Of a stretch of 64,000 nucleotides of DNA, positions 4,106 through 63,339 are shown in pieces (the stretch's first letter is position 1; each line of letters opens with the position of its first letter). The notes below the pieces were generated by a model. That model did no database searches. It saw only the letters and a list, made by a program, of their open reading frames with translations, and was not told where the DNA came from. Both the position numbers and the translations under genes were made by a program. This DNA is from Isurus oxyrinchus (lineage: Eukaryota): assembly GCA_026770705.1 (NCBI GenBank), contig JANJGN010000026.1:34472001-34536000 (forward strand), in the 5' to 3' direction.

Positions 4106-4591
4106 TGGTATTTGCACGGAAAGTCTTACTCATGTTTTCAGGCAATCAGAGAGACAAACCAAATTAGCAACAGCACAATTCAGGCGGCCAGATCTCTCTC
4201 TGAGCGGAGAAAGTGGACTCTAAAGAGCTGATCAGAAGCAGGACTCACAGCTGAAAGATGTTTCTGATCCTCCATCCAGACCGACTGGCGTCACACTGAC
4301 TGCAGGGTGACGTCACAAAGGTTACAAGGCGATGTCATGGACACCGCAAAATAATGTCTCATGGACGGATGCTCTGAAGTATGCGCACCCCACTCCCTCA
4401 CATCCCATCAATGCTGAAGCCCCCTCGCAGCTTCACTTTGTGATCACAAGTCCCAGAGCCCCGTGTCTGGCGGACACAGTGTAACTGGTGTTGGGCTCAG
4501 TTTGATGCACAACAGCGATGACTTCAGCAGGTGACTCTCTTGGTTTCAGACTTCCTACAGTTATTTTATTCAAGTCGATAGCATCCGACAC

Positions 4592-4650
4592 ATGAATCTG
4601 AGAATCACTTTAGTGACCATATTCCTGGATATTTTACTCTTTCCTGCGTG
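4592..4650 (+). pseudogene. Orphan family E leader exon (V exon lost at the LINE insertion)
   Basis: MNLRITLVTIFLDILLFPA, homologous to the leaders at 59231 and 39300. Confidence 0.6.
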
Positions 4651-4769: not shown

Positions 4770-5905
4770 GCAGGATGTTGGCTAGGTCAAAATTTATTGC
4801 CCATCCCTAATTGCCCTTGAGAAGGTGGTGGCGAGCTGCCTTCTGAACCGTTGCAGCCTGTGGTGTAGGTAGACCCATGGTGCTGTTAGGCAAGGAGTTC
4901 CAGGGCTTTGGTCCAGCGACAGTGAAGGAACGGCAATACATTTTCAAGTTAGGATGGTGAGTGCCTTGGAGGGGGACTTCCAGGTGGTGGCGTTCCCATG
5001 TATCTACTACCCTTGTCCTTCTAGCTGGTAGTGGTCGTGGGTTTGGAAGGCGCTGCCTAAGGAGCCTTGGAGACTTCCTGCAGTGCATCTTGTAGATGGT
5101 ACACATGCCTGCAATTGTTCGTCCATGGTGGAGGGGATGAACGTTTGTGGATGGGGTGCTAATAAAGCGGGCTGCTTTGTCCTGGATGGGGTCAAGCTTC
5201 TTGAGTGTTGTGGGAGCTGCACGCATCAGGCAAGAGGTGAGCATTGCATCACACTCTTGACATGTGTCTTGTGGACAGGCTTTGGAGAACCAGGAGGTGA
5301 GTTACTTGCCGCAGGATTCCTAGCCCCTGACTTGTTCTTTTAACCATTGTGTTTATATGGTTACCCAGTTCGGTTTCTGGTCAATGGTGGCCCCCAGGAT
5401 GTTTATAGTGGGGGATTCAGTGACCGTAATTCCATTAAACATCAAGGGGCAATGGTTGGATTCTCGCTTGCTGGAGATGGTCGTTGCCTGGCACTTGTGT
5501 GGCGCGAATGTTACTTGGCACTTGTCAGCTCAAGCCTGGATATTATCCAAATCTTGCTGTATTTACATATGGACTGCTTCAGTATCTGAGGATTCGCGAA
5601 TGGTGCTGAACATTGTGCAATCATCAGTGAACATCCCCACGCCTGACCTTATGATGGAAGGAAGGACATTGATGAAGCACCTGAAGATGGTTGGGACAAG
5701 GACTCTGCCGTGAGGAACTCCTGCAGTGATGTTTTGGAGCTGTGGTGATTGACCTCCAACTATCACAGTCATCTTCATTTCTGCTCGAGATGACTCCAGC
5801 CAGCAGAGAGTTTTCTCCCTGATTCCTATTGACGCCAGTTTTGCTAGTGCTCCTTGATGACACACTCAGTAAAATGCTGCCCTGATGTCAGCGGCAGTCA
5901 GAATC
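4770..5905 (-). mobile_element. 5'-truncated CR1-group LINE
   Basis: RT remnants GVPHGRVLVP..MFTDDCT; C-terminal IQDKAARFI; tail shared with the SINE at 795. Confidence 0.8.
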
Positions 5906-5973
5906 TCCTCACCCTTTCACCTCAACATCCTTTTAAAATCAGTTACCTTCTGTCGAAGTCTATATCAGACACT

Positions 5974-6470: not shown

Positions 6471-6969
6471 GGCCTCACAGCAATGTAAGAGACCGCACCT
6501 TCCTCCACACTCAGGCCGCTTATATTGAGGAAACCAGACTGTTCAGAATTGTCAGCTGCACTAGTTATCCTCCTGAGGTTTTATCTTTTTGTCACTTTGC
6601 TAGTGATCCAACTGAGAGGTTGTGTCGGTTTCTGCCGATACCATTGCATACTGTACGTATCCTGGTCTATATATTCACAATCTAACTGCACCAAACCCCC
6701 TTCTGACACAGTTAATGTCACCGCTGACTGAGTTACTGGATGTGCATAGTCCGCCTGTGGAAGTAGATGAAGAAAGGAGCAGAAATTTAAAGAGGATCGA
6801 TCTAAACGTGTATACTTCTGTATGAGTGTGTGTAAATTCGCATTTCCCAAACTGTCGTTAATTACATTAATTCCTAGTATAAGCTCTTTGCAACAATCTG
6901 CTAACCTGTCTTGATAAACAAAGTCCAATACGTACTGTCCAACAGCGCGGCCAGTATTATCAGAAACAT
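6471..6969 (-). pseudogene. V pseudogene, family D
   Basis: Leader MFLIILAALLD (6936-6969); PVTQSAVTLTVSEGGLVQLDC..QWYRQ; in-frame stop at 6581; C104 lost; degenerate heptamer. Confidence 0.85.
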
Positions 6970-7094
6970 GTCTGACTGAATCTCTCTCAGTTGAATGTGA
7001 ATGGAATGAGCCAGGGATTAAGAAGAAGAGAGGGACCCCGGGCTCTGTTCAGCTCATTGTTACACCCACACAGCTCCAGGTCCCAGGCCCTTTG

Positions 7095-7380
7095 TGACCA
7101 TAAGGCCACAAGAGCAGAAGTAGGCCATTCGGCCTATCGAGTCTGCTCCATCATTCAATGAGATCATGATTGATGTGGCATTCCGCAAATCCACATTTCT
7201 GCCTTTACCCAATAACCCTTGATTCCTTTACTGATTAAACATGTGTCCATCGCAGCCTTGGGTATACTTAAGGACCCAGCCTCTACAGCCCTCTGCGGTA
7301 AAGAATTCCACAGGTTGACTGGCCTCTGAGAGAAGAAATTCCTCCTCTGTCTTAAATGGGCGACCCCTTACTCTGAGAGA
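7095..7380 (-). mobile_element. CR1 3' fragment
   Basis: Reverse complement of the gaatggcctacttctgctc tail. Confidence 0.7.
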
Positions 7381-7454
7381 CCTCACTCGGGATACCATCC
7401 CTTTTGGTTTTGACGTTGGTGACGCGTGACTTTCTAATGAGCATGCTTGGGTTT

Positions 7455-7472
7455 AGCGCCCTCTGCTGGTCG
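7455..7472 (-). promoter_or_regulatory. CTCF motif between the divergent D and B promoters
   Basis: GACCAGCAGAGGGCGCT; paralogs at about 37330(+) and 61180(-). Confidence 0.7.
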
Positions 7473-8417
7473 ATTCTGTTCATTCCGGCTTAGAATCGGG
7501 GCCATCGAGTGGGTTTCGGGTTTCTTGATTTACATATCAAAACACTAATGCCATGAATGTATTCCCAGAAATTTATATTGGATCTATTCAGACTTAGTCC
7601 TTATTTGTTAATGTTTATGGCAGAAAGTAATGATAATCATTTATAAATCACTGTTTAGCCACCAATGATCTACCATTTACATGAATGTCAAAATATTGGA
7701 GAAAGTAAACTGGAATGGCACCAGGGCTGACGACCTTCAACGTGAGCAGGCTAGAGAAACTGTTATTAGTCTTCTTCTGTCAAATGATTAAAGGAGACAT
7801 TTAATTAAAATACTGAAAATGATAAGAAATTTGATGTAATAGATTGCGTATAATTGTTTCGATTAGCAGAAAATTCGAAAATCCAAGCGCACCAATTTGA
7901 GAGCAAAAATATAGGGAAAGATTATATTAAACTATTACATTGCCATTTCTTCAGAGCTGGAACCACTGCTAGGAGGAAAATGCGGGACGAAATGTGAATT
8001 TGATCACTCTTTCAATGAGGCATAGACACATGATAGGCCGAATGGCCTCTGTCCTTGCTTTAAGATTCCAAACCATTCCTGTCCCTCCCATTTTGTTTGT
8101 CATCAGTCAGTTGAACAGTGAACAGGAGCAGAATGGTCAGAGACTCCTGCAGATTCAACCGTCGCTCTATCCGCTCCACCAATTCGGGGTGTATCTGAGA
8201 GTCACCGCACAGTTCACACAATATTGAGTCTGCGGTATCCCCGCCCACAGCTTCCGTTTGCTGCTGTCGCTCTGACCCGATTGTGTTATTGGAGAGATTG
8301 CTGCCGCTGGTCCATTCCTGTCATTGGTTGGGTCAGCAGCGCAGTGGGCCGGGAACCTGTATTTCTGCTCAGACAGAGGATTTCTCGCACTGCGGAGTTA
8401 CAGACTTAGGAAGTATC

Positions 8418-8901
8418 ATGGGGAAAGTCTCTCTCCGCTCCTCATCATTATCTCAATTCCGTCCCAGTGAAACACCATTCTCCCCTTGACTGCTCTAACC
8501 CGGATGCTACCGTCGGTAAAAAAAATGGTGATGGTGATGACGATTATGTTTATTAATATGAGGCTGACGCTGATTGTTGTTATTGCTATTGTTTTATGTT
8601 GGAATGGAGCCACCAAGACACAATGGAACAACCGGTTGCTGAAATAACTGCGAAGACGAAATGTCACACGAACTTGCACCTTGGAAACAAGCGATTCTAA
8701 CCTTAAGATGCACTGGTACAGTCAGCGCCCCAAGCAGCCTCCACAGTGCATGTCTTATATTCTGGGAGTGAAACTATACAGACGCACCGACATCACATGT
8801 TGCTTTTCAGCTTCGTTATATAATACAGCCAAGAGTACCGAGCTATTGATCTGCAGTACCCTGATCTCTAACAGCGCGGTATATTTCTGTGCCATGATGC
8901 C
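8418..8901 (+). pseudogene. V pseudogene, family B
   Basis: Donor deleted, acceptor mutated, FR1 frameshift; WYSQRPKQPP..SAVYFCAMMP; RSS CACGCTG-24-ACAGAAATC. Confidence 0.85.
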
Positions 8902-9724
8902 CACGCTGCTGCAGAGATACAGCGAGTCCCGTACAGAAATCCCACACTGAGTTCCAGTTAGTGTTCCTGCAGAGGGCGCTCTCGCACCGATAAATAGGAC
9001 CAAAAACCCCGACTCCGCAGTGTGAGCCACAAGCACCGTCGTAAAATTGGAACAGAACACAAACCCTTCAAGAGCAGATAATGACCACTTCAGCGCTAAT
9101 ATTAATGTGCGATTTCAACTGGCGTATCAATGGTGCCTTAACTCACCATTTTTTTCTTTGGATGATTTTCCCTGCAGATTGATTTTTTTCACCCGCTGTC
9201 TCCACCCGTTACTCAAAAATTCAGACATTCCTCCTGCCATTTACTCCAGACCATCGATACTTCTTTGTACACTAACTCAGGACGACTTTAACCCTACTGT
9301 CCATAGATTCAGCCTCAGTATTATCCGAGGTTGTTAATGAAGGTTTCGTTTACTATTGTTTGAGTTACTAATCCTGACATATCTGTGTTCACCCTGCACT
9401 CCGTCAATATGGAATAAATACGAAAGTACCGCAGCTCATATACAGAGACATGGTTATATCATTTTCAAAGGGAACATTATTATTGACGTCAGCTCCTTAC
9501 AATTGATTCGATGTGTGACGGCACCTCCTGCTGCGGCCCTGCTCACAGCTCCCGTTTGCTGCCGTCGCTCTGACCGGCTTTGCCTGCCCTGTGTTTTTGG
9601 AAAGATTGCTGCTGCTGTTCTCTGTTTGGCATTGTTTGGATCAGCAATAAAGTGGGGCAGAGCTCGGCATTTCTGCTCTGACAGACAATTTCCCGGACCG
9701 CAGCATTGTAGAAAGAAGGACCAT

Positions 9725-13725: not shown

Positions 13726-13744
13726 AGAGCGCCCTCTAGTGGAC
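13726..13744 (-). promoter_or_regulatory. RSS-proximal CTCF motif
   Basis: GTCCACTAGAGGGCGCTCT, 22 bp after the nonamer. Confidence 0.75.
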
Positions 13745-17445: not shown

Positions 17446-18429
17446 TGTGGAGAAGTATGTAAACCAGTACGAAAACTCGGTAAATCCGGAACATTATTGG
17501 ACCGGATGAAATGCTGAGAGAATGAATTGTTCACGGAGTTCGGGTTAGAACTAGGATACGGATATCATGTTATATTATATTATATTATATTACATCGAGG
17601 AAAATTAACAACCAGCTAAACACCCACTTCAGGTCCAACTCAGAAGTTTCTTCGAGTAAAAAAAACTAAAAAGCCTGTGCTCGGGGTGTGCTTACTCCCG
17701 GAATTCCCATATTCGGTGCTTCTCACGAACTGCAGCCTACGCTGTCTCTCAACTCACACGCGGTACCACACACTCCGTCTTTCTGCAGGATACCAGCTCA
17801 CATTCTAACTTCAGACCGGGCCGCCCACACTCAGTGTTTCACACTGCCCTCTTGTGGCGTGTACTACTGATTGCGATGTGCTTTTATTGCTGCTGAATTC
17901 GACAAATTGTATTTCGTAGGAGAGTTGTAAATGGGAACAGATTTTCCCTCCTTCTTGGTGTTGTTCGTTTAGCCGGAGAAATCTTAATTCCCGCCTTTCT
18001 TTGCAGACCCCAACATTTAGTGTGTTTCTCTCCTCCAGTCTTATTTGATTATTCCTATCATAAAATATGTTTTTATTTATTGAACCTTTGCCTTACCCAG
18101 GTGTGTGCACAATGACACCTTCTTCCTGCTGTTTCAATATATCAACAGTAGTAATAACATTGGTAAATGATAATCAAAGAGCGAAATAAACTCTTTCATT
18201 CATTTAACATTTTTCACTATTACTGAAGCCTCGAAGGGCTTATAGTCATTGAAGCACTGATTGAAGTATGGTCATTGTTTAATGTAGGAAATGTAATGTT
18301 TAATTTCCGTTTGCCAACTCTCACATACGACAATGTGACAATGACCATATAACTTGTTTTTGTGATGTTGATTGAGGGATAAACATTGTTAATTCCAAAG
18401 CTCTTCTTCGATGCAGTATCATGAGACAT

Positions 18430-20330: not shown

Positions 20331-21872
20331 CAGTTTAGATCAAAACGGATAAGAAGGAATAGAATCTGCAAATCCGGAGCATTATCACGTCACATGGAAT
20401 ACCGGCTGAAGCAATTGTCCACGGAGATCAGGTTCGAGCCAGGAAATGGATATTATGTTCAGAAGATTCAACAAGGAGACAAACACCCGCTTCAGGTCAA
20501 ACTCAGAGACGTCTTTGTCGAATTAACGAAAGAAGCCGAGCCTTGATGTTTACCGCTTCAGGATTCACACTAACACCGGTTCACACTGTCTCTGAGCTCA
20601 TAGTTGGCCAACTACAATGACTACTTCACAGCGATATCGGCTCACACTGTCTCTGCACTAACACGGGGCCGCTCACATTCAACGTTTCTCACTGCGCTCT
20701 GGTGGTGTGTACCGGTAATTGCATGCTGCAGTTGTTCATTGGAATTCCAGCCAAGCTGCAGTTTAAATGATAGTTGTAAATGAAAGCAGCTAATCCCGCC
20801 TCTCTGTTATACGTCTCTTAACCGTGGACGATCTACCCCGCCATATCATCTGAAACGTCCAACGCTTCCATTGCATTTTTCTGCTGCATTCAGGCTGAAG
20901 CTTCATTCTACACTGATCATTCACAGTGTGACAAGAGGAATGTCCTAATATTGATCTAAAATCTCATTTTATGGTTTGAACCAGCATGTTTGCCCATATG
21001 GATACAGGGCGAGCTTTTCCATCGAATATTTATACCCTACCACTGACAACTCATAATAATAAATTATGTCGGACAAGCCAAAATGCCTGCGCATGTTAAA
21101 ATTATTCGTTGCTCCCACGTTCGTTTCTTAATCACCTTTTCTTCAATGAAGCTACTGAACACGTTTGAGACTCTGGAATTCGCCCCAACACTGAGCACAT
21201 ATCTCAGTGCTCTCTTCTGGCGGTGACGTGGTACTGCAAGGCATAGCTGTTCAGTAGTTTTTAGCTTTCCGAATTCCAGATACCTTTCGACAGTCTCCCA
21301 CCCTAACCTAAGCGCACTATTTTCTTTTCCTTTTTTATGCTTTATCTTTGCATTTTTGCTGTTAACGTTTGCTGATGAATCCGATTTCCTAATTACACCT
21401 TCGCCAGGATTATCATTTGTATATTTGTTTGTACCATTCCCACAGCTCTTCTCTTGGGACACCGTCCCCCTTGACATTTAACCTCTCCTGCCTTGCACCT
21501 TATTGCAGGCTTTGCTACTTGTATACTTCCGCCTTAGCCTGCATTTGTACTTGCCTAAAATCCGTTCTATTTGTACCTATATTTTCCGGCTCTGATAAAC
21601 CTAACCGAATAAAACTTAGACGGTTTCTCTCTCCAAAGCTGCTGTAGGCCCTGCTGAGCGTCTGCAGAATTTTGCATTTACATTTCGGACACTATAAAGT
21701 TTCTATCGCAATGAGGGAGGCCATGCCGCCAATTCTGTCTCAATAATTCGGCAATGCATCAATTCCCTCCCCCAATGTGCCCCCAAACATTTGCTTAAAT
21801 TAGTTAGGTGACTAGTCAGCTTCAACTCCAGCTAGGATTTTATTTCACACATTCTTCACTTTCTGTGTGTAG

Positions 21873-23457
21873 ATCTGAGTCATGGAGATTCTGTCACCTG
21901 GCCACTGTTAAAACAGAAAGAGAAGCGGTGATCATCTTCCGAGATTCTATAGACTCTGGAACAGTTCCTACAGATTGGAGGGTAGCTAATGTAACCCCAA
22001 TATTTAAAAAGGGAGGCAGAAAGAAAAAAGGGAATTATAGACCAGACAGCCTGACGTCGGTAGAGAGGAAAATTCTAGAGGCCATCATAAAAGATTTAGT
22101 AGCTGAGCACATTGAAAACAGAGGAAGGATCGGGAAGAGTCAGCATGGATTTATTAAAGGGAAATTATGCTTGACAAATCTACTGGAATTTTTCGAGGAT
22201 ATAACTAGTAAAGTTGATGAGGAGGAGCCAGTAGATGTGGTTTATTTGGGCTTTCAGAAGGCTTTCAACAAAGTCCCACATAAGAGATTGGCATGTAAAA
22301 TTAAAGTGCATGGGATGAGGGGTAGTGTATTGAGGTGGGTAGAAAACTGGTTGGCAAACAGGAAACAAGGAGCAGGAATAAACGGGTCTTTCTCCGAATT
22401 GCAGGCAGTGACTAACTGGGTACTGCAGGGATCGTTGCGGGGACCCCAGATAATCACAATATCTATTAATGATTTAGATGAGGGAATTAAATGTAATATC
22501 TCCAAATTCGCAGATGACACAAAGCTGGGTGGGAGGGTAAGCTGTGAGGGGGATGCAGAGATTCTTCCGTGTGACTTGGACAAGCTGAGTGAGTGGGCAA
22601 ATGCTTGGCAGATGCAGTATAAAGTGGATAAATGTGAGGTTATCCATTTTGGTAACAAAAACAGGAAGGAAGATTATTATATGAATGGCTATAAATTGAG
22701 ACAGGGGAATCTGCAACGAGACCTGGGTGTCCTTGTACACCAGTCGCTGAAGGTACGCATGCAGGTGCAGCAGGCAGTAAAGAAGGCAAATGGTATGTTG
22801 GCCTTCATAGCGAGAGGATTCGAGTACAGGAACAGGGATGCCTTGGTGCAATTGTACAGGGCCTTGGTGAGACCACTCCTGGATTATTGTGTGCAGTTTT
22901 GGTCTCCTTATCTGAGGAAGGATATACTTGCTATGGAGGGAGTGCAGCGAAAGTTTACCCGACGAATTCCTGGGATGACAGGACTGACATATGAATAAAA
23001 ATTGAATCGATTACGATTATGTTCGTTGAAGTTCATAAGAATGAGGGGGGATCTCATAGAAACCTGTAAAATTCTAACAGGACTAGACAGGATAGATGCA
23101 GGAAGAATGTTCCCAATGGTGCGGGAGTCCAGAACCAGGGGTCACAGTCTGAGAATATGGGGTAGACTATTTAGGACTGAGATGAGGAGAAATTTATTCA
23201 CCCAGAGAGTGGTGAGCCTGTGAAATTCGTTACCACAGGAAGTAGTTGAGACCAAAACATTGTATGTTTTCAAGAAAGAGTTAGATATAGTTCCTGGGGC
23301 GAAAGTGATCAAATCGTATGGGGAGAAAGCAGAAGCAGGCTATCGATTTGGATGATCAGCCATAATCATAATGAATGGTGGAGCAGGCTCAAAGGGCCGA
23401 ATGGCCTACTCCTGCTCCTAGTTTCTATGTTCTATGTTGTTACTGCTCCTTGGGACT
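21873..23457 (+). pseudogene. Family C V segment with its core replaced by a CR1 LINE
   Basis: FR1 at 21873-21930; YCSLGL at 23441-23457; RSS CAAAGTG-22-ACAGAAACT at 23458-23495. Confidence 0.75.
21931..23438 (+). mobile_element. 5'-truncated CR1 LINE, RT domain plus 3' UTR
   Basis: DWRVANVTPIFKKG, NYRP, SQHGF, YLGFQKAF, KFADDTKL; stop at 22998; (TTCTATG)n tail. Confidence 0.92.
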
Positions 23458-23789: not shown

Positions 23790-24085
23790 ATTTATGGGTC
23801 AGCATTCATTGCCCATCCCTAGTTGCCCTTGAGACGATGTTGGTGAGCTGCCTTCTTGAACCGCTGCACTCCATGTGGTTTAGGTACACCCACTGTGCTG
23901 TTAGGAAGGGAGTTCCAGGATTTTGACTTAGTGAAAGCGAAGGAACGGGGATATGTTTCCAAGACAGAATGGTGAATGGCTTGGAGAAGAACTTCCAGGT
24001 TGTGGTGTTCCCATCTATCAGCTGACCTTGTCCTTCAAGACGGGAGAGATTACGGGTATAGAAGGTGCTGTCAAAAGAGGCTTGA
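23790..24085 (-). mobile_element. LINE 3' fragment (same family as 4770)
   Basis: Homologous to 4790-5070. Confidence 0.7.
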
Positions 24086-26070: not shown

Positions 26071-27401
26071 AAACAATGGTTTCAAATTAGCCCTTATGCT
26101 GTTAATTCTAAGACACCTGTATTTTTATGATAGGTAATATATAATGCATATGTGCACATGCAGGTAGGTGAGTGCAAAGTTTTATAGAGGTGATCAGTCT
26201 GATGATTCATTGGCAGATTGGCATTGGCCTCTCGGTGTTTCTACCACCTCCTCTCCCTGAACAGGATGTCAGTTTCGATCAGGTTCTCCCCAGTAAATGC
26301 CCGGACTGTAGTTCCCGACAAACTGCCGATATCCTGTTGTGCGGAAAATATCTCTGAACAGACTGGAGACCAAATCCGGGAAACCCCAGGATGTGGTGAC
26401 CGCTCATCTATACAATCCAGGAAGAAGGACAGGTTGAAATAAAGAAAAACAACTAAATCATACATTACTGGTCTACGTGGAAATAAGCAGACAATAAATT
26501 TAACCCCTGGATTGAAACATTACTCGACAAGACAAAGAAAGTCTTTTCCTGATGTCGTGCTTTTCCTGACTCAGGGCGTTCGGAAGCCTTTCCAACTTCA
26601 GCAAGTACGTTTCCAGTGAAGTCACTGTTGTGATGTTAGAAGAATTATTTCCACAGTGGGCAGCGGAGATGTTTACTTCTCTGTTAGAATGGGTTGTCAC
26701 TCTGACCCTGGATTAAAGGAATTTGTGGTTCCAGGTATTTTCCGGATACTTTGAACTTGTGGCAAATGGCAACCAGAAGATTTGGTAACAACATGTCTTT
26801 CTCTCACTGTGTTTTTGCCTCATTGAGGAATATTGATCAAAAAATTATGCTGCCCTCCTTATACGGGCTACCTCGTGATAACGGACCACGAAATACAATG
26901 GCTTAGCGAGTTCACTCTCTTGATCTCCTGTGTCATTCTCCTCCACATATCATGTAGTAAGATGGCATTGGCAACCAAAAACTTGCGTTGAATTTGTCCA
27001 TGATTATGCGTGGTAAAGTACTGTGGTGGTTTAATGTTGCCTTCTGCAGTATGGGTAATCTGGAAACTCTCCTGTTCTTACTGCCTGCCATGAGGCGTAT
27101 TGAAAGGATTTACAAGCTGATAATTAACCTGCTTGTCCGCGTTATGAACGCACACTCGGTGGCGAACAAGTCTTGAAATGGGAATTGAACCGGGCACTTC
27201 TGACCAAGAGGACAGGGACACTGCCTTTGCTCCGGCGCACCTCGTTCTGTGCTATGACAGCAGTAATCCACATAAAGGCTCTTGCCCTAAACGCGCAATC
27301 GTTTGCGGTGAACTGTCACGACGCCAAGCTATTTCCGCAGCTGTCACCTGTGACAGTGGAGAACTGACAGCTTTGTGAGTTTTGCCAAAGATAACGTCTT
27401 T

Positions 27402-27419
27402 CAGCGCCATCTAGTGGAG
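27402..27419 (-). promoter_or_regulatory. CTCF motif
   Basis: CTCCACTAGATGGCGCTG. Confidence 0.7.
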
Positions 27420-32809: not shown

Positions 32810-35425
32810 GACAAAAAGTACCTGGAAACACTTAGTGGGTCTGGTAGCATCTGCGGAGAGCAACACAGTTAACGTTTCAAGTCCGTATGACTCTTCAACA
32901 GATCTAAGTAAAAATAGAAAAGAGGTGAAATATAAGCTGGTTTAAGGTGGGGCGGGGGGTGGGGGTTGGAGTGCAGGAGGTGTGGTGGGGGGGGGGGGGG
33001 GAACAGGTTGAGCTGGATAAGGGCCAGTGATAGGTGGAGACAGGCAAAAGATGTCATGGACAAAAGGACAAAGAGGGGTTGAAGGCGGTGATATTATCTA
33101 AGGAATGTTCATATTAAGAGTAGTAAGCAGGACAAGCAAGCACAGATAGCCCTAGTGGGGGTGGAGTGGGGTGAAGGGAAGAGATCGAAATAGGCTAAAA
33201 GGTAGAGATAAAACAATGGATGGAAATTCATTTAAAAATAATGAAAATAGGTGGGAAAAGAAAAATCTACATAGATTATTGGAAAAAAGGGGCTATCGGA
33301 AAGGGGGTGGGAATGGAGGACAGAGTTCATGATCTAAAATTGTTCAACTCAATATTCAGTCTGGAAGGCTGTGAAGTGCCTATTTGGAAGATGACGTGCT
33401 GTTCCTCCAGTTTGCGTTGGGAAGGGACTGACAAAGGGAGAGAGAATCCAATCCCTTCCCACCTACATCCATGATTCCTCTGACACTCTCCATCATATCA
33501 ACAATTTCCAGTTCTCTGGCCCCAACTGCCTCCTCTTCACTATGGACGTCCAATCCCTCTACACCTCCATCCTCCACTGGTATGGCCTGATGGCTCTCCA
33601 CTTCTTCCTCGGACAGAGGCCCGAACAATCGCCATCCACCACTACTCTCCTCTCTCTGGCTGAACTTGTTCTCTCACTGAACAATTTCTACTCAAACTCC
33701 TCTCACTTCCTCCACATAAAAGGTGTGACTGTGGGTACCCACATGGGCCCCAGTTATGCCTGTCTCATTATGGGGTATGTGGAACATTGTTTGTGCCAGT
33801 CCTATTCTGGCCCCCTCCTACAGCTTTTTCTCCAGTACATCGATGATTGCTTCAGTGCTGCTTTATGCTGTCTTCTGGACCTGGAAAAATGTATTAATTT
33901 TGCTTCCAATTTCCGCCCCTCCATCATTTTCACATGGTCCATCTCTGACACTTCCCTTCCCTTCCTTGACTTCTCTGTCTCAATCTCTGGTGATAGACTG
34001 TCCACCAATATTCATTACAAGCCTACCGAATCCCACAGCCACCTCGAATACAGCTCCTCACACCCCGCTTCCTGTAAGGACTCAATGCCATTCTCTCAGT
34101 TCCTTTGCCTCCATCACATCTGTTCTGATGATGCCTCTTTCAAAAACAGTTCCTCTGACATGTCTTCCTTCTTCCTTAACCGAGGTTTTCCACCCACGGA
34201 GGTTAACAGGGCCCTCAATCACGTCCGGCCCATCTCCCACACATCTGCCCTCACATCTTCTTCTCCATCCCAGAACAATGATAGGGCCTCCCTTGCCCTC
34301 ACTTGTCACCACACCAGCCTCCGCATTCAAAGGATCATACTCTGCCATTTCCGCCAACTCCAGCATGATGCCACCACCAAACACATCTTCCCTTCACCCC
34401 CTCCCCCTGGCGGCATTCCGCAGGGATCGTTCCCTCTGAGACACCCTGGTCCACTCCTCCATCACCCCCTACACCTCAATCCCTTCCCACAGCACCTTCC
34501 CATGCAACCGCTGAAGGTGCTACACCTGCCCATTTACCTCCCTTCTCCTCACCGTCCAAGGGCCCAAACACTCCTTTCAAGTGAAGTAGCATTTCACTTG
34601 CACTTCCCTCAATTTAGCCTACTGCATTCGTTGCTCCCAATGCGGTTTCCTCTACATTGGAGAGACCAAACGCAAACTGGGTGACAGCTTTGTGAATACC
34701 TTCGGTCTGTCCGCAAGCATGACCCAGACATCCCTGTCGCTTGCCATTTCAACACTCCACCCTGCTCTCATGCCCACATGTCCGTCCTTGAACTGCTGCA
34801 TTGTTCCAGTGAAGCTCAACACAAACTGGAGGAACAGCACCTCATCTTCCAACTAGGCACTTTACAGCCTTCCGGACTGAATATTGAGTACAACAATTTT
34901 AGATCATGAACTCTCTGATCCATCCCCATCCCCTTTCTGATCCCCCCTTTTTTTCCAATAATTTATGTAGATTTTTTTCCCACCTATTTTCGTTATTTTT
35001 AAATGTATTTCCATCTATTGTTTTATCTCTACCTGTTTTCGATCTCTTCCCTTCACCCCACTCCAGCCCAACTAGGGCTATCTGTACCTTGCTTGTCCTG
35101 CTTACTACCCTTAATTTGGACATCCTTAGATAACATCACCACCTTCAACACCTCTTTGTCCTTTTGTCTGTGACATCTTTTGGCTATCCCCACCTTTCAC
35201 TGGCCCTCTATCCAGCTCTAACTGTCCCACCACCAACCCCCCCACCCCCTTAAACCAGCTTATATTTCACTTCTTTTCTATTTTTAATTAGTTCTGTTGA
35301 AAAGTCATACGGACTCGAAACGTTAACTGTGTGCCTCCCCACAGATGCTGCCAGACCTGCTGAGTTTTTCCAGGTATTTTTATTTTTGTTTTGGATTTCC
35401 AGCATCTGCAGTTTTTTGCTTTTAT
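32810..35425 (+). mobile_element. Penelope-like retroelement (RT + GIY-YIG) with inverted terminal duplication
   Basis: MDVQSLYT, GTHMGPSYA, QYIDD; LAYCIRCSQCGFLYIGETKR; 32810-33420 is the reverse complement of about 34810-35420. Confidence 0.9.
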
Positions 35426-38546: not shown

Positions 38547-38784
38547 GGTGCCTGCTTTAGAACTGGACAGACAATAACAGAATATTCAAAATATGTCGAC
38601 CCTTCTTGTCTGATATTCAAGAGCAAACCAAGATAGGGGCAGGATTCACTCATTGAAGATGGAGAGATGTTTTACAGTGAGTTGTAAAAAAAAACGGCAC
38701 TCTGGTAACGACACAGACTACAAACGTTCAGAATCAAATCCCACAGGTGTTTGTATGGTCCCTGTTGATCTTCGCTCCACTTTG

Positions 38785-39300
38785 TTTGTACTGCACAAAA
38801 ATAGGTGGCGGTGTCTTCCAGGCAAGTGTCATGAACATTCTGAGCACTGTGCTTCTCTGCAGCAATGAACCTAGCCATGACCGTGTCCTGATCACCTCTA
38901 CCTCTTGCTAGGTGCTGCATGGTTGGACCTGTGTATCGTCTGTAACATTGGAGGATCAGTCCTGCTACTGTGGTCCAATAGGTCCATGATAAAGTGTTTC
39001 CCTCGGTAACAACCACTGACTTAGGAAATTGCGATACCTCTTCATGGCCAGTTGCGTATGGAAGGAATATGCAGATGTTGAAATATATCATTAATAAATA
39101 ATATTATAAAATGCTATCATAATATAGTACAATAAAACACAACATTGTATAACACAATCAAGGAAAATCTAACCCAACATAACACAATGCACATAGTATC
39201 TGATGTGTAATATATTCCTGTCAGAGATAGTGGCCACACTCACATGTGGGCAGAGTAAGGAATTCAAGAGGATAAACACGAAAGTGAAGCTCAGACTCAT
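38785..39300 (-). pseudogene. V segment, family E, open exon lacking C23/W41, acceptor mutated
   Basis: Leader MSLSFTFVFILLNSLLCPH; EEVSQFPKSVVVTEG..DTATYFCAVQ; RSS CAAAGTG-23-ACAAACACC. Confidence 0.8.
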
Positions 39301-40029
39301 GCCTCCTATCGACTGTTGTAAAGTAGCTGTCGTCAGATCCAAGGCCCAGATAGTTTTCTGGGAAATGCAACGCTCTTGAGTATCAAACTGAGCCGAAGTG
39401 CAGTTTACACTGTAGCCGCCAGACACGGGTCTCTGAGACTTGTGATCAGAAAGTGAAGTTGTGAGGGAGGCTTCAGCATTGATGAAGCTTGAGGGGAGGA
39501 GGGGGGGTGCGCATGCGTCAGAACATGCACCTGTCTGACGTCAGACTGTACCCTCTGTGGCGTCAGTCTGTTGGATCTGTGACGTCAGAGCGAAGACTTC
39601 GAGACGCATGTCTGCAAACTCTGTGATATCAACATGTAATGATTACCTGACGTGCGTCTGTCTACAATGTACACTGATATTTTAAACAAATTAGTACCCC
39701 CCTGTTTGCCATGAGCTATCTTTGAAACAGCGGTAAAACAGCAGAACTCGTTCCAGTAAAGCGGCTGGAGTTTGTTTTGCCAATGAGAATGGTGAGCAGC
39801 CAGTTTTGCCTTCACATCGTGAATGTCAAAATCAGGCGGAATCAGTGGTTACAGGAAATGGTTTTAGATGATGTTTGTGTGGATTGTGCTCAGGGCCTGC
39901 GCTCAGAGGAATGGATTCACTTGTCAGTGTCTGACCCGCTGTGATAAACATCCCTCAGCAGACAGCAACTGTGACCCAGAAACCTGCGGCAGTTATAATA
40001 TGAGGGTTTCACTCGTTCCCAACGCTGTG

Positions 40030-42908: not shown

Positions 42909-42927
42909 CACTGCCACCTGGTGGCCT
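42909..42927 (-). promoter_or_regulatory. CTCF motif
   Basis: GGCCACCAGGTGGCAGTG. Confidence 0.7.
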
Positions 42928-47850: not shown

Positions 47851-48006
47851 NNNNNNNNNNNNNNNNNNNNNNNNNNNNNNNNNNNNNNNNNNNNNNNNNN
47901 NNNNNNNNNNNNNNNNNNNNNNNNNNNNNNNNNNNNNNNNNNNNNNNNNNNNNNNNNNNNNNNNNNNNNNNNNNNNNNNNNNNNNNNNNNNNNNNNNNNN
48001 NNNNNN
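47851..48006. other. Assembly gap (156 N)
   Basis: Run of N. Confidence 1.
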
Positions 48007-49945: not shown

Positions 49946-50580
49946 GATCTCCGGATCTACCTGTCCTTGTAAAAGTGATAGGTCTGGAGCCTATCTGTAG
50001 TCAACATTTTCCTAATCTCACAGGCTTTCTCAGAGGTGTCACAGATTAAAGTTTCTGGGGTAAAAGTAGTAACTGACTGAAATTTACTGGTGCTATCGGG
50101 TCTCGGTTTGGAGTTGGGTAGCTGCTTATCATTTTGGGTTTATTAATTGTACATATGGACTGGACGGCTTTGATTAAATCTAGGCAAAGACTAATTGTGA
50201 AGTACTTAACTTCTCATCCTAATTAGAAAGAAAGGTCTATCTATCTAAGTATATAGATATTGCGTTCGGAGTGAGGGAGTTAAAGTGAGCAAAAAGACAG
50301 TAATGTGAAACAGAGGAACGGAACGAGAAAGACAAACAGACAAACACAACCAGGGATAGAATGTGATTGGAGAGAGACAGTTGTTATATAACCCTGAACA
50401 AACAGTAACTGGTCCACAGCTGACGTCAGCTCAGGGAAACCAGCCAATCGCAGCACTGAGAAACGCCCCTCAATTTCCAGTAACTGAAACCTGCCGTTGA
50501 TCTGAGTTTTCTCTTTGATATAAGACTAGAAGCAGCAACATATTTTCAGCAGTGTGCTGTTTACTGTCGAGCCTGGAACC

Positions 50581-51264: not shown

Positions 51265-52983
51265 GAATTACCTGCAAAAACTCAGCAGGTCTGGTAGTAT
51301 CGACGGAGAAGAAAAGATTGACGTTTCGAGTCCTCATGAGTCTTCGACAGAACTTGAGTTCGAGTCCAAGAAAGAGTTGAAATATAAGCTGGTTTAAGGT
51401 GTGTGGTGGAGGGGAGAGAGAGAGAGAGAGAAGTGGAGGGGGTTGGTGTGGTTGTAGGGACAAACAAGCAATGATAGAAGCAGATCATCAAAAGATGTCA
51501 CAAACAACAGAACAAAACAACACATAGGTGTTAAAGTTGGTGACAATATCTACACGATGTGCTAATTAGAATGGATGGTAGGGCACTCAAGTTACAGCTC
51601 TAGTGGGGGTGAGGAGAGCATAAAAGATTTAAAAATATTTTAAAATAATGGAAATAGGTAGGAAAAGAAAAATCTATATAATTTATTGGAAAAAAACAAA
51701 AGGAACTGGGAAACAGAAAGGGGTGGGGATGGAGGAGGGAGTTCAAGACCTAAAGTTGTTGAATTCAATATTCAGTCCGGAAAGCTGTAAAGTGCCTAGT
51801 CGGAAGATGAGATGTTGTTCCTCCAGTTTGCGTTGGGCTTCACTGGAACAATGCAGCAAGCCAAGGACAGACATGGGGGCAAGAGAGCAGGGTGACAGGG
51901 CTCTCAACCGTGTCCGGCCCATCTCCCATGCATCCACCCTCACGCCTTCTCCTCCCTCCCAGAAACATGATAGGGTCCCCCTTGTCCTCACTTATCACCC
52001 CACCAGCCTTCGCATTCAAAGGATCATCCTCTGCCATTTCCGCCAACTCCAGCATGATGCCACCACCAAACATATCTTCCCTTCACCCCCCCTGTCGGCA
52101 TTCCATAGGGATCGCTCCCTCCGGGACACCCTGGTCCACTCCTCCATCACCCCCTACTCCTCAACCCCCTCCTATGGCACCACCCCATGCCCACGCAGAA
52201 GATGCAACACCTGCCCCTTCACTCCCTCTCTCCTCACCGTCCAAGGGCCCAAACACTCCTTTCAAGTGAAGCAGCATTTCACTTGCATTTCCTCCAACTT
52301 AGTCTACTGCATTCGTTGCTCCCAATGTGGTCTCCTCTACATTGGAGAGACCAAACGTAAACTGGGCGACTGCTTTGCAGAACACCTGCGGTCTGTCTGC
52401 AAGAATGACCCAAACCTCCCTGTCACTTGTCATTTTAACACTGCACCCTGCTCTCTTGCCCACATGTCTGTCCTTCGCTTGCTGCATTGTTCCAGTGAAG
52501 CTCAACGCAAACTGGAGGAACAACATCTCATCTTCCAATTAGGCACTTTATAGCCTTCCAGACTGAATATTGAATTCAACAACTTTAGGTCTTGAGCTCC
52601 CTCCTCCATCCCCACCCCCTTTCTGTTTCCCACTTCCTTTTGGTTTTTTCCAATAAATTATATAGATTTTTCTTTTCCTACCTATTTCCATTATTTTTAA
52701 ATATTTTTAAATCTTTTATGCTCTCCCCACCCCCACTAGAGCTATACCTTGAGTGCCCTATCATCCATTCTTAATTAGCACATTCGTTTAGATAAGATCA
52801 CCAACTTTAACACCTATGTGTTCTTTTGTTCTGTTGTTTGTGACATCTTTTGATGATCTGCTTCTATCACTGCTTGTTTATCCCTACAACCACACCAACC
52901 CTCTCCCCTTCTTTCTCTCTCTTTCTCTCTCTCCACACCACGGCCCCCCCAGCCCACCCCCACCCCCACCCCCCCCCCCCCAC

Positions 52984-57345: not shown

Positions 57346-57625
57346 AGCCTCAGAGTAAAGGGAAGAACAGAGATGTGGAGAAATCTCTTCAGCCAGGTAG
57401 TGGTGAATCTGGAATTCATTGCCGCAGAAGTCTGTGGAGGCCAAGTCATTTAGTGTATTTAATACCGAGATAGATCGGTTCCTGATTGGTAAGGGGTTCA
57501 AAGATTGCGGGGAGAAGGCGGGAGAATCAGGTTGAGAAACTTATCAGACATGATTGAATGACGGAGCAGACTCAACGGGCGAAATGGCCTACTTTCTGCT
57601 ATGTCATATGGTCTTATGGTCTTAT
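57346..57625 (+). mobile_element. CR1 3' fragment fused to tRNA-Leu
   Basis: agcctcagagtaaaggg..ttcagccag..ggcctactttctgct..ggtcttatggtcttat. Confidence 0.8.
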
Positions 57626-58084
57626 ATTGCTGCTTCAGGGCGGTATATGGAAAATGAACACATTTCACAATGAATGCGCCCTTTAAAACAAGTCCCGAGC
57701 ACAGAGCTCCCTCAGTGCTCATTGTTGCTTTTCAGTAGCTGTTTAATCCTTTCTGTCACCATTCACAAATTAGTGTTTCTACTTTTCATACCAAGGCTGG
57801 GGGATGCGTTGCCCTCCCCCCACCCCACTCACCCACCCATCCACATCCACCCGCTCCTCCCCATCCCCCCAATCCCGTCCCAAACCTTGTAACCATCTCC
57901 GTTGTAAGGACATTGATTATAGCCCCGCCCGGGCTGTTTCAATTCACAGAGAGCCTACAGGTCTTAAAGCACCACAGTGCTTTAAGTGAGGTGGGAGGAC
58001 CCTGCGAATGAAGGGGAATTCTTGAGGGTGCAAATTAGAACGAAGTTGCTCTCATCTCAACTTCCCTTTTACAGAGCGGACAAC

Positions 58085-58380
58085 GGCAAAGCAGTCACCC
58101 AGCATCTCGGTTGTATGGGGCGGCGGCAGGACCAATTCTGACAGATTGAAATAAACACATTTCATCTCATTTACAGAACACGGTTTGAATCTGAAATTTT
58201 GAACACAGTCCTGCTTGATTATTTCCTGTGTGAATACATATTTCATTTCGGAGCCATGGAGAGTCTGTCACTTAGATATAGTCCTCGAATGTTAAGAAAA
58301 AAGGAGATGCAGCTGCTTTAATTTTCACCTACTGATAGTATATGGAAGGACTTCTTTTTTCTTGTATTGCCTTAACCAGA
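58085..58380 (+). pseudogene. V relic, family C
   Basis: Paralog of 3766-4105; gagccatggagagtctgtcac. Confidence 0.6.
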
Positions 58381-58891
58381 TCGGGCTGTATTCACAGAGG
58401 CGGTCTTGCTCCTATCTGCAGACAATCGGTGAGACAGAGAACAGCAAGGGTACGGTTCAGGCAGTCAACCCTCCCAGAGCGGAGAAAGTGGAGTCAAGGA
58501 GTTGATCAGAAGCAGGACTGAGAACCGGAGTTTATGATGGAAAGGATCTCCACTCCCGTACTTTAGGCTGTGCCTGGGAGCTCCTGTCTGTGGAGTTTGT
58601 ATCGAATCTCGGGCAGGTGCAGCCACAATGTTCAGCGGCGCTGTCAGCCGCTCAAACACACACCGAGAGGAAACCACATTCACTTCAGATCAAACTGTCA
58701 CTAATTGCTTCCAGCAGCGGCCGAGAAAACAAACCGCAGAATCTGATCCGACCCACAGATCCATCGCCAAATGAATCTACAAGGTAAACTGCCCTTCCTG
58801 TTTCTGATCAGCTGCTAATTCCCTTAAAGACAGGGCTCGATGTTCAGATCAGCTCCGGGAAGGATGTTTACGATTCTCGAACCTGACTGGC

Positions 58892-59010
58892 TGACGTCAA
58901 GTAGGCTGCGGACTGACGTCACACAAACTGTAGAGTGACGTCGCACAGACCGCCGACTGACGTCACTCAGACTCTCGACTGGCGTGATAGATGTCCGCAT
59001 TCTGACGTCA
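58892..59010. promoter_or_regulatory. 22-bp phased CRE array upstream of the family E V
   Basis: TGACGTCA-like motifs at 58892, 58914, 58936, 58958, 58980 and 59003. Confidence 0.75.
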
Positions 59011-59230
59011 CACAGACGGGTGCTCAGACGCATGCGCATTCCTGTCCACCAAACCACATCCTGTTGAAGCTCCCGAAAAGCTTCACTTTGTGATCACAAT
59101 TCCCAGACACCCCGGTCTGACCGACACTGTGTAGGACTCAGTTTGATCTCCAGCAGCACTGCCGGAGAAGGAGTATCTCTTGCCCTGAGGTCTGCTGACA
59201 GCTGTTTCCCAATAATCGATAGGACCCGAC

Positions 59231-59744
59231 GTGCCACTGAGCTTCACTTTAGTGATTTTCTCCCTGGGTTTCTTATATTTACCTCCGTGTGAGTATGATC
59301 GCTATTCCTGGCAGGATTATCTCACGATTCAGGTCCGTTAGGCTAAATTGCACTTTGTTTTATTGTATTCTCTTGTACTACGCATAAAGGTGTTCTTTAT
59401 TGTGCTGTATTATATTCCATTGCGCTATATGGTATTAATTTTATGAAATTGCGGTATATCCACACATTCTTCTCAGATGCAAGGGGCAGTGAAGAGGTAT
59501 CACGGCCTCCTGAGTTAGTAATTCTTACCGAGGGAGATACTGCATCCTTGACCTGTTCCACTACAATAGGAGGAGGATCCCTACACTTCTACAGGCAATA
59601 ACTGGACCGAACTGTGCAGCACCTGGCGAGTGGTACCGGTGATCAGGATAGGATCACGGCTCATTTCAGCAGAGAAAAGCAGCACTCTCAATGTTAGCGA
59701 CACTCAAGTGACAGGCACCGCCAACTATTTCTGTGCAATGGAAA
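59231..59744 (+). pseudogene. V pseudogene, family E
   Basis: GTG start; EEVSRPPE..LTC..FYRQ*; GTANYFCAME; RSS CAGAGTG-23-ACAAAACCC. Confidence 0.85.
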
Positions 59745-59993
59745 CAGAGTGTATTCAAGACCATTCAGGACCGTACAAAACCCGCCAGGGCGATCCGGAA
59801 AGTATGCAACCCGTGCAGTTATCAGGGAGCTGAGCGTTTTACACCACTCTCCCTTGGCCTTTTTACACCACTTTCCCTCGGCTACCGAATAAGTGAAACC
59901 TTTCTCTCATTTGGGTTTACTCTTTAATATCAGAGAAGGGTCAAATGCTTTTTAAAATTCCGTTAATTTCTGTGCAAGTCTGAATCAGACAAC

Positions 59994-60360
59994 ATGTTCT
60001 CCCCATGGTGCTTTCCGATAATACCCACGGTGCTGTTCGCTGTGTCTATATTTAAAGGACCGTTGTCTAGTTCATGTGTTAAATCCAATTCCAGACCTTG
60101 ACATGTTTTGCTGCAGGAACGAGTGACACACAGTGAATGTCCCAGGGTCCATCGGATTTGAAGTCCTTGGAAGAACAGTCAGTAATGTTAATCTACAATC
60201 ACCACACATACGATGCCTTTCTCTGCCTCTAGGCAGATCAGTATCCCGGGTAGGTTCTGAGATATTTACTGAGGAGACGTAGGCCGAGATATTGAGATAA
60301 TTCTCAAGATTTCCTGAACCAGCTCTCTGTTGATTTGATCAAGGACAAAGACAGCAATGC
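59994..60360 (+). pseudogene. V pseudogene, family A, 3'-truncated
   Basis: Paralog of 5974; QYPG..RYLL..DFLN remnants. Confidence 0.75.
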
Positions 60361-60514
60361 AAATGTTTGATAAAAAAAAACCTGACAAACTTTATTCTCT
60401 GTGCGCCTGGGATCAAACTAACCCCTCTGATAAAAGCACCTAAGAAGACTGCGTGCAAAAAACTCGAGGAGGTTTTTGTTTTCTACGGGGTCTTGGCTTT
60501 TATGCGACGGTGTG

Positions 60515-60987
60515 CCTCACTACACGGTAATAGACCGCCTCGTCCCCCACACTGAGGCTGCTTATTTTGAGGTAGCCATTCTTCTTAGACTGGTCAGCAG
60601 CCAACAGATGTTGTGCTGATATTTTGTCTTCGTTGAATGCTGCCACTTTGGTAATTATCCAGCTTGGAGGTTGTGCCTGTTTCTGCTGATTCCATTGCAC
60701 GTTGTCTATAACCTACTCTGTATATTCGCAATCGAACTGCACAGAGGCCCCTTCTAACACGGTTAATGCCACCGGTGACTGAGTTACTGGATCTGCAAAT
60801 AGTTCGCCTGTGAACGCAGAGGAACAAAAGAGCAGGAAGTTAAACAGGATCGATCAAAACCTGTGTCTATCTGTATGAATGTGCTTAAATTCCAAACTAC
60901 CAAGCTTGCATCAATCTACTAAACTGTCTTGATGAACCTAATTCTAGACTTACTGTCCAACAACGCGGCCAGTATTATCAGAAACAT
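60515..60987 (-). pseudogene. V pseudogene, family D
   Basis: Leader MFLIILAALLD; DPVTQSP..FDCEYTE*; DEAVYYRVVR; heptamer CACACCG. Confidence 0.85.
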
Positions 60988-62225
60988 GTCTGAGTGAATA
61001 TCTCTCAGTCAATGGGAAGGGAATGAGCCAGATATTGAGGAGAGAGGGGACCCGGGCTCTGTTCAGCTCATTGTTCCACCCACACACTGCAGGGGGCCAG
61101 GCCCATTGTGGCCTCACTCAGGATACGATTCCGAATAGTGCGTCTCATGCAACTTTCTAAAGAATGTGCTTGGTCTTGGCGTCCCCTGCTGGTGGATTCT
61201 GTTCAATCCGGTTTAGAATGGGGTCATCAGGTAGACTTAATATAGTCACATATGTGAATAGACTAGTTAAACTGGGGTTGTTCTTATTATATCTTTCTAT
61301 TGAATCCTCGACCTGGAGGCAGGTCCGATCCACTGCACCACCGCGGGTAGAACAAGGAGGTAGGCCCCAAATCCACCCCAGCTGGAACAGGAATTGAACA
61401 CCGTCCTGGCCTTCAAACTTGCTGAGCCAACAGTCCGCCCTCCTTCCAAGGATTCAGAAGAGGGTAAGATACCCATTGGCCACAAGACCGCCTTAAATCA
61501 AAGGAGGTAAGGGAGAGACTGAACTGAGGTTTTCAGATTTATGTGGGTTTGTTAGTGTAGATCGTGCATAACTGTTTCCAATTGCGGAACATTGGATATC
61601 ACAAGGGGCCCGATTTAGAGGGAAAAGCAGCTAGGGAAAGATTCGATTAATTTATCACACTGCGATTTGTTAAACTCTGGAAGGCAGAGCCCAATAGTAT
61701 GGTGGAAGAAGATTCAACACCATACTTAAGAAGGAAATTGTATATAACTAGAAAGGGAAAATGCCAGGCTCTGTAGAAAATGTGGGCATTGAAAGCCGAA
61801 CCGAAAAATCATTTGAAAGTGTCTCAGACATCACAGGCCGAGTGGCCTCATTCGGTGCTCTAAGATTCCATGTTTCTAGTGCCTCCCTGTCCCTCCCACT
61901 CTTCTTGTTCTCAATCATTTGAACAGTAAACAGGTGCAGGATGGTCAGAGAGTTCTGAAGCTTCGACCGTTGCTATTTCCACTCCATCAGTTCCCAGTGC
62001 GGCTGAGAGTAACTGCACACTTCACTCAATATTCAGTCTGCGGTATCCCCTCCCACAGCTTCCGTTTGCTGCTCTCGCTCTTAACCGATTGTGTTATTGG
62101 AGAGATTGCTGCAGCTGGTCCAATCCTGTCATTGGCTTGATCAGCAGTGCAGTGGGATGGGTATATGTATTTCTGCTCCGACAGAGGATTTCTCGCACTG
62201 CAGAGTTACAGACCAAGGAAATGCC

Positions 62226-62727
62226 ATGGGAAAACATCTCGCTCCACTCCTCATCATTATCTCACTTCTCAGTAAGTATTTCCATCCCAGTAAAACTCCG
62301 TTCTCCTTCTGACTTCTGCAATCCAGATGCTATTGTTGGTAAAATAATAGTGATGGCGGCGATGATGATTATGTTAATCAATAGGAAGCTGATGCTGATT
62401 GTCATCATTATTATTTGTGTTAGAATGGGGTCACCAAGATACAGTGGAACAGCCGATTCCTGGAATAACGTTTGAAGAGGAAAGCAATGTCACATTAACC
62501 TACTCCTTGAAAACAAGTGATTCTAACCTCTGTGTAAACTGGTACAGCCAGCGCACCGAGAAACCTCCAATGTACCTGTTTCGTCTTATTGTCGAGAATG
62601 TGCACAGGAATAACGGCATCAATGGTCGATTTTATTCTATGTCTAAAAAAAAAATCAAGATTACCAAGCTAACGATCAATAACACACTGATCCCCGACAG
62701 CGCCGTGTATTCCTGTGCCAGGGACTC
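62226..62727 (+). CDS. V segment, family B, open but C23Y (leader 62226-62271, exon 62424-62727)
   Basis: MGKHLAPLLIIISLL; QDTVEQ..LTYSL..NLCVNWYSQ..DSAVYSCARD; RSS CACACTG-24-ATTAAAACC. Confidence 0.75.
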
Positions 62728-63339
62728 CACACTGTCGCAAAGATATAGGGAATTCCACATTAAAACCAGTATTGGCAGTTCCAACCAATGCTCACCAGGG
62801 GGCGCGCACGCACCGGTAATTCAGTTTTCACGGTGAGGGCGACAGGGAGACTCTTAAAATTACAACAAAACACAACACTCAATAACAGGAACGGGCCAGG
62901 CCACTTTCACAGTCATCTTAGTTTATGATTGCACATGTCATTTATAATAGATTCACCAATTGTTCTGTGATGTCTTAACTCCTCTTCGCTTTCAACGCCT
63001 TTCCCTACCTATGTATTCATGACCACCCTTCTTTTTACTCATTTCTGAAAACTGTGCACATTTCCTTTTCCAGTCTTTAATTTAAACGTTTGCAGCTTTT
63101 TCTGCTCCCTTGTGCATTAATTCAGAAGAACTCCAACCCGGATGCTCATGTACTCAGGTTTGCATTCAATCCACATCACACTATTGGAAAATTTACTAAT
63201 TCTGACACTCCTGTTGTGAGCCTGCTGGCCTGCAATATTGGACGAAGGTTAAACTACCGCAGTTGTTACAGAGAGGCAAAGGTATATAATTTTCGAATTG
63301 TGATGATTATTAAGCTCAGTTTCTTGTAGATAAATCCTA

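Follow-up and report, generated by a model that had tools for sequence, protein, structure and literature searches.

The window, by which we mean the whole stretch of 64,000 nucleotides that was analysed, carries closely packed V segments on both of its strands. About 32–33 V segments or fragments were tabulated, with RSS spacers of 22–24 bp, and only five or six of them combine an open frame with a good RSS; RSSs with 24- or 22-bp spacers were seen at 2969, 35878, 31980 and 13804. The exons tested from neighbouring V segments contain a V-set domain in every case (4/4), the best single-domain PDB matches of the window's V exons are TCR alpha V domains, and the only homolog with a name comes from Chiloscyllium punctatum (61%). 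From these matches we infer a cartilaginous-fish TCR alpha/delta V cluster. Self-comparison of the window revealed that a multi-V cassette has been triplicated, once in inverted orientation (~3550-9030, 39550-35830 and 57890-62820). The subject of this report is an array of CRE octamers, F, which with its two paralogs, A and B, precedes the homologous leaders of one V family only (Table 1). The window further holds an RT-bearing LINE fragment (RVT_1) at 21808-22998(+), two related retroelement-like ORFs at 33395-34684(+) and 51633-52553(+), which belong to a repeat family with several copies and of which the one tested gave no Pfam match, and a 156-base N gap at 47851-48006.

Table 1. Positions of the arrays, of the genes and elements linked to them, and of CTCF-consensus matches in the window.
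Feature	Position	Strand	Remarks
Array A (paralog)	4286..4382	+	5 units, intervals 22,22,22,23
Leader exon behind A	4592..4649	+	open
Repeat-like insert replacing V exon of copy A	4785..5920		first 285 bp recur at 23797-24084, 77%
V gene behind B	38746..39300	-	leader 57 nt to donor (58 in A and F); heptamer CAAAGTG
Array B (paralog)	39513..39655	-	7 units, intervals 24,22,22,22,22,23
Array F (focal)	58892..59033	+	7 units of decayed 22-bp tandem repeat, intervals 22,22,22,22,23,23
NRF1-like element	59027..59038	+	overlaps last half-CRE
Array-to-leader stretch	59034..59230	+	homologous in three copies, 70-76% pairwise
ETS/RUNX composite CAGGATGTGGT	59053..59063	-	exact 11-mer of human TCR-beta enhancer
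Leader exon remnant behind F	59231..59288	+	GTG where paralogs have ATG; splice donor at 59289
TRAV-like V exon behind F, pseudogene	59477..59744	+	stop at 59599
RSS behind F	59745..59783	+	23-bp spacer, heptamer CAGAGTG
RSS-proximal CTCF-consensus matches	3032, 8966, 10245, 13729-13742(-), 56896, 62792		
Further strong CTCF-consensus matches	7456-7469(-), 17844-17857(-), 20692-20705(-), 61179-61192(-), 27404-27417(-), 42911-42924(-)		

The octamers of array F lie where the preliminary description had placed them, with TGACGTCA at 58892, 58914, 58958 and 59003, TGACGTCG at 58936 and TGGCGTGA at 58980; the intervals it gave between these six (22, 22, 22, 22 and 23) are confirmed, and the NRF1-like sequence that it saw at about 59030 is GCATGCGCA, starting at that base. 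The spacers, which it put at 14 bp throughout, have that length in the first four cases and measure 15 bp in the last two. The array itself was correctly recognised. What had been missed was a seventh unit, a half-site at 59026 (AGACGCAT, +23) that is fused to the NRF1-like element and reads TGACGCAT in paralog B, together with the pseudogene state of the V gene, its broken RSS and the two paralogous arrays.

The same description had held the spacers to be unique and the array therefore not to be a tandem repeat, and this is contradicted. TRF reports a period of 22 over 58891-59017 (5.7 copies, 64% matches), and the four 14-bp spacers of F share a pairwise identity of 58%, against 26% when shuffled (p=5e-5); the corresponding values in array B are 0.56 and 0.25. 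The units stand head-to-tail, their homology extends over the whole unit, and the bases just 5' of unit 1, judged by eye, resemble a truncated spacer in all three arrays. Copy number varies by whole units, with seven in F, seven in B and five in A, such that A is two units shorter than F and in register with it, between flanks that are homologous in F and A. The array is of tandem origin and, on the evidence of its sequence, a decayed minisatellite. No long terminal inverted repeats or other long repeats were found to bracket array F. Its density of sites exceeds chance: not one of 100 dinucleotide shuffles of the window produced even a single pair of perfect CREs 12-16 bp apart, and 10 perfect CREs occur in the window against 0.75 expected, seven of them inside the three arrays. 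A structured RNA at array F was considered and rejected, the only match in an Rfam scan of 57500-60500 (E=0.94) lying outside the array.

All three arrays are in promoter position. Array F sits 228-339 bp 5' of the leader position of a TRAV-like V gene, and the distance from the last full unit to the leader start is 228 bp in F, 243 bp in B and 240 bp in A. A unit-profile scan of both strands combined with nhmmer found no fourth array in the window, and there is none at the two nearest V relatives (17460 and 20325). A perfect CRE lies within 1.2 kb of the V gene at 50717, but of none of the other four V genes that are clearly intact. The state of preservation varies between the copies, with B nearly intact in its proximal four units (1 change in 32 bases) and decayed in its distal three (8 in 24), and with A the most decayed of the three.

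The V genes linked to the arrays are all dead, each being broken or missing (3/3), and at none of the three loci does an array stand before a functional, rearranging V gene of the kind that a TCR V promoter CRE serves. The F leader, which has lost its ATG, is preceded by an in-frame TAA six codons upstream, and its V exon carries a single frameshift near 59660-59680 in addition to the stop and has the conserved Trp replaced. The CAC triplet of the heptamer is required for RSS cleavage, and with the third base of this triplet changed the RSS of F is probably not cleavable. The V exon of B, from which the family was typed as TRAV-like by comparison with the PDB, is open, but neither the first Cys nor the conserved Trp is present in it. 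Behind the leader of A the family's V exon was not found, and in its place stands an insert that we take to be LINE-like and that has no Pfam match. No intact member of the family was found in the window, and a word search with the B exon for intact members elsewhere returned one candidate and no such member. A search of the full library gave 15 hits, one of them clearly closer than the rest (P0004, 48%, 95 aa, E=3e-11). Mismatches between the V exons of F and B number 22, 27 and 31 by codon position, a weak pattern that intact pairs also display, and we discarded this signal of past selection as uninformative.

The motifs of the array are better conserved than the spacers between them. In F, 45 of 48 motif bases match the majority base, against 60 of 84 in the spacers; neutral-decay simulations with the same overall conservation give P=0.0002-0.001 for the octamer columns and 0.02-0.03 when the best stretch of any 8 bases is taken, and column permutation gives p=0.004 for the octamer columns. 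Tests inside F alone are modest once corrected for ascertainment, the permutation for the best such stretch reaching p=0.055. When arrays A and B are compared with a consensus built from F only, 65/80 motif bases match as opposed to 73/140 spacer bases (p=1e-5), although the unit boundaries of A and B were placed by eye at octamers resembling the motif, a choice in the motif's favour, and the paralogs share ancestry with F and are not independent tests. In all three copies the best-kept stretch coincides exactly with the CRE palindrome. Measured against the outer flanks rather than the spacers, the motifs stand out for CpG only: the motif CpGs common to F and B are 6/7 compared with 10/94 in the flanks (p=4e-5), whereas F-B base identity in the motifs (44/56) does not exceed flank identity (p=0.17). 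For A, CpG sharing (2/5 against 14/70) is not above the flanks either.

The spacers themselves have moved apart. At the same position, spacers of F and B are 51% identical, which is below the flanks (64-72%, p=0.006 to 2e-5); unit turnover and faster spacer change are candidate causes, with an uncertain neutral baseline. Concerted evolution within each array found no support: neither the similarity of spacers within a locus (0.473 versus 0.450 across loci, p=0.16) nor that of spacers at the same position (0.505 versus 0.455, 90/720 permutations) gave a significant signal. According to the preliminary description, a decayed minisatellite in which the motifs are no better kept than the spacers would refute its reading; the spacers do align as a minisatellite, yet the motifs are better kept. 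Its placing of CRE consensus sites in promoter position before a TCR V leader is borne out by the octamers, by their location and by this excess over the spacers. That the excess is also present in A and B points, as far as sequence can indicate, to past selection on CREB/ATF sites. The pattern fits near-perfect CREs lying within already diverged spacers at the time of the cassette duplication, followed by decay to differing degrees.

The stretch between array and leader, presumably core promoter and 5' UTR, contains no TATA-like match. The NRF1-like element agrees with the NRF1 consensus at 10 of 12 bases in F and B and at 8 of 12 in A. The 11-mer CAGGATGTGGT, given in PMC2787013 as the ETS/RUNX composite of the human TCR-beta enhancer, lies 20 bp after array F, where 0.0003 exact matches would be expected in 400 bp; this match was found post hoc, by eye, among many possible motifs, and it is absent from the aligned position in A and B, so that one copy of three has it. 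Exact matches number two in the window against 0.05 expected, the second being at 26387-26397(+), ~860 bp beyond the RSS that belongs to the intact V gene at 25226 and with no evident cluster. As a separate observation, one and the same 11-mer is present in the presumed UTR at 59079-59089 and in the leader coding sequence at 59240-59250, and similarly in paralog B.

These features enable us to propose a model in which the array was, quite probably, the upstream promoter part of one TRAV-like V family that multimerised the TCR-V CRE by tandem duplication. A 22-bp segment with a full CRE was multiplied head-to-tail into 5-7 copies ahead of the triplication of the V cassette, as the homology of the repeats and the equal distance of the three paralogous arrays from their leaders show. 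In the model, while the gene worked, selection would have held the eight CRE bases and their CpG as the spacers drifted, with binding of CREB/ATF/CREM as the plausible cause. Known CRE biology suggests that such a homotypic cluster would allow several bZIP dimers on unmethylated sites to recruit CBP/p300 and CRTC, largely additively. The cluster might first have driven germline transcription and the opening of the V segment for RAG, then expression after rearrangement, and CpG methylation of the array would have provided an off switch. Copy A would subsequently have decayed at the background rate and B come to lack its distal sites, leaving F as the best-preserved relic. The “strong promoter” of the preliminary description applies to the ancestral gene, because the V gene is now a pseudogene with a broken RSS.

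It is conceivable, if unlikely, that the focal copy outlived its gene as an orphan intra-V enhancer, the other role suggested in the preliminary description, or as a germline promoter, which would open the chromatin of neighbouring V segments through its CRE cluster and ETS/RUNX composite, a combination also found in mammalian TCR enhancers. F shows 4 changes from the ideal CRE in 56 bases, at a branch rate of 0.155 (p=0.052), whereas B (9/56, p=0.50) and A (8/40, p=0.92) are both at the background branch rate. All seven motif CpGs of F are kept, against 5/11 in its flanks (p=0.025), though its V gene has neither start codon nor frame nor RSS heptamer; the same comparison gives 6/7 against 5/12 in B (p=0.08) and 2/5 against 5/7 in A. 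Nor is F simply a slow lineage, as the adjacent UTR, leader and intron have 61 lineage-specific changes in F, 48 in B and 35 in A over 340 columns, and the exact TCR-beta-enhancer 11-mer beside the array is found in F only. However, both preservation tests are marginal (p about 0.03-0.05) and post hoc, the ETS/RUNX match was spotted by eye and has its exact counterpart at 26387 without an evident cluster, and no CTCF-consensus site (≤2 mismatches) follows the focal RSS. Moreover, the V exon of F has only one stop and one frameshift, and recent gene death explains the preservation too, in a simpler manner. We regard it as similarly doubtful that F was co-opted after the death of its gene, having gained or kept the ETS/RUNX composite to become an intra-V enhancer shaping V usage, a miniature of mammalian TCR enhancer logic. 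Were this the case, unit number could tune the strength of F. Activity of F in the absence of its gene would mean that V pseudogenes could be retained for a regulatory role.

The constant period had been read as design, with CREB/ATF dimers phased on one face of the DNA, and this does not survive the arithmetic. A unit of 22 bp is 2.1 turns and puts neighbouring sites ~34 degrees apart, and at 10.5 bp/turn the sites of F fall at 0, 34, 69, 103, 137, 206 and 274 degrees, with sites 1 and 6 some 206 degrees from one another; the span of 0-274 degrees becomes 0-231 at 10.6 bp/turn and 0-318 at 10.4. Single-face phasing of the whole array is ruled out by these cumulative angles. We consider it quite unlikely, in addition, that the 22-bp period was selected for cooperative co-activator recruitment by neighbouring bZIP dimers on nearly the same face. 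The small angle between adjacent sites, the exact 22 bp of 11 of the 16 intervals in the three arrays (4/6 in F, 4/6 in B and 3/4 in A, the others being 23 in four cases and 24 in one) and the whole number of units by which F and A differ would all agree with such selection. On the other hand, tandem origin yields constant spacing without it, the cumulative angle is 206 degrees at site 6 and 274 at site 7, and the five intervals that are not 22 are all longer and thus further from the ideal of 21. Changes in array length between copies are as rare as the flank indel rate predicts (2 versus 3.3 expected, P=0.35; 1 versus 1.7, P=0.49), in a comparison that spans 90-134 bp and has low power. The length of the repeat unit, not a tuned helical phase, suffices to explain the period.

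The CpG content of the array invites a further explanation that involves no selection on function. Here, constitutive binding of CRE/NRF1-type factors in the germline would keep the patch unmethylated and its CpGs slow to mutate, so that the array would protect itself in the manner of a small CpG island. Of all 200-bp stretches in the 64 kb, 58851-59050 is indeed the richest in CpG, with 18 CpG and an o/e of 1.13 compared with 0.57 overall, and F keeps its 7/7 motif CpGs before a dead gene. We nevertheless judge this very unlikely as the whole explanation, given that the motifs exceed the spacers in conservation at their non-CpG bases too, in F (33/36 versus 60/84, p=0.011) as well as in A and B together (49/60 versus 80/140, p=6e-4), that spacer CpGs are not in excess (6 versus 3.8 expected, p=0.18), and that the o/e of the 200-bp flanks is 0.52-0.79. 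Germline CpG protection could still contribute to the preservation of F.

Finally, it is highly improbable that the array has no regulatory role and is a minisatellite in neutral decay, or a repeat derived from a transposon, with TGACGTCA in its unit by accident: the tandem structure seen by TRF, the three dead genes, the background-rate divergence of A and B and the permutation for the best 8-base stretch in F would suit it, but the best-kept stretch is the CRE palindrome in three copies, including its hypermutable CpG (6/6 kept, P=0.0016 at twice the CpG rate), the array is confined to a single fixed distance from the leader of one family, and it is not bracketed by long terminal inverted repeats.

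The multimerised promoter that we prefer for this family has neighbours of other kinds, as other V families in the window have conserved blocks of their own at a similar position. The family with three intact V genes has a common, compact promoter block at 50405-50480(+), ~2350-2430(+) and ~14420-14345(-), in which we recognise what we take to be a CRE-like site (perfect only at 50421), a CCAAT box and a GC-box-like motif. A second V family has a common block at ~36560-36420(-), 62050-62190(+) and 8230-8370(+), presumably made up of a Runx-like TGCGGT beside a GC box and an ATTGG (CCAAT-like) downstream. Matches to the CTCF consensus number 25 in the window against 12.3 expected, a count reached in 0/100 shuffles. 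At six of 25 RSS positions, several of which were set by eye, a CTCF site (0-2 mismatches) follows the start of the heptamer at a distance of 55-64 bp and in V orientation; one further site is at +78. The matches at 7456, 17844, 20692 and 61179 are 370-710 bp upstream of minus-strand V segments, that is, in promoter position. Mouse Igh proximal VH genes have RSS-proximal CTCF sites, and the post-RSS matches recall that arrangement, here in a shark TCR locus; they may prove more interesting than the array.

Cartilaginous fishes are the oldest group that has TCRs, and how their V genes are controlled in cis is little described. If our model of the array is true, V promoters driven by CREs are as old as chondrichthyans, and gain and loss of repeat units could change promoter strength in the course of evolution. 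The three arrays form a small natural decay series. That the parts are known and the linked genes dead limits the significance of the array. A literature search that covered little of the subscription literature found no paper that treats the TCR V promoters of cartilaginous fishes or describes a V gene with a CRE minisatellite. A TCR-like decamer is a feature of horned-shark VH promoters; the CRE unit of the glycoprotein hormone alpha promoter is 18 bp long, and the flanks of the 21-bp repeats of HTLV-1/BLV are read by Tax.

Several known systems resemble the arrays. The CRE is a known TRBV promoter element, with one TGAxxTCA site ~80-120 bp upstream in many bovine, human and mouse TRBV genes (PMC2685407). 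As in that CRE/decamer promoter, a CRE palindrome lies 5' of a TCR V leader in some V subgroups only; unlike the single TRBV site, the arrays described here have 5-7 sites in tandem, lie 228-355 bp upstream and belong to a cartilaginous-fish V family of alpha/delta type. The glycoprotein hormone alpha promoter is likewise a cellular promoter with tandem CREs, bound by CREB/ATF2, the deletion of which lowers induced activity (PMC11049346). It has two copies with demonstrated function, whereas the arrays have 5-7 copies with diverged spacers and are known from sequence. Of similar unit length are the imperfect 21-bp repeats of the HTLV-1/BLV LTR, which each contain a CRE core and act as a methylation-sensitive T/B-cell enhancer, methylation of the CRE CpGs blocking CREB/CREM/ATF binding (PMC12957037). 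Those repeats are viral, three in number and not head-to-tail, and the likeness implies no sequence relationship. The ETS/RUNX composite of the TCR alpha/beta enhancers (PMC2787013) is represented beside array F by the exact TCR-beta 11-mer; unlike in those enhancers, it lies inside the promoter of a V pseudogene and is not conserved in A and B. The components of the array are all known, and their arrangement appears to be a new variation on them.
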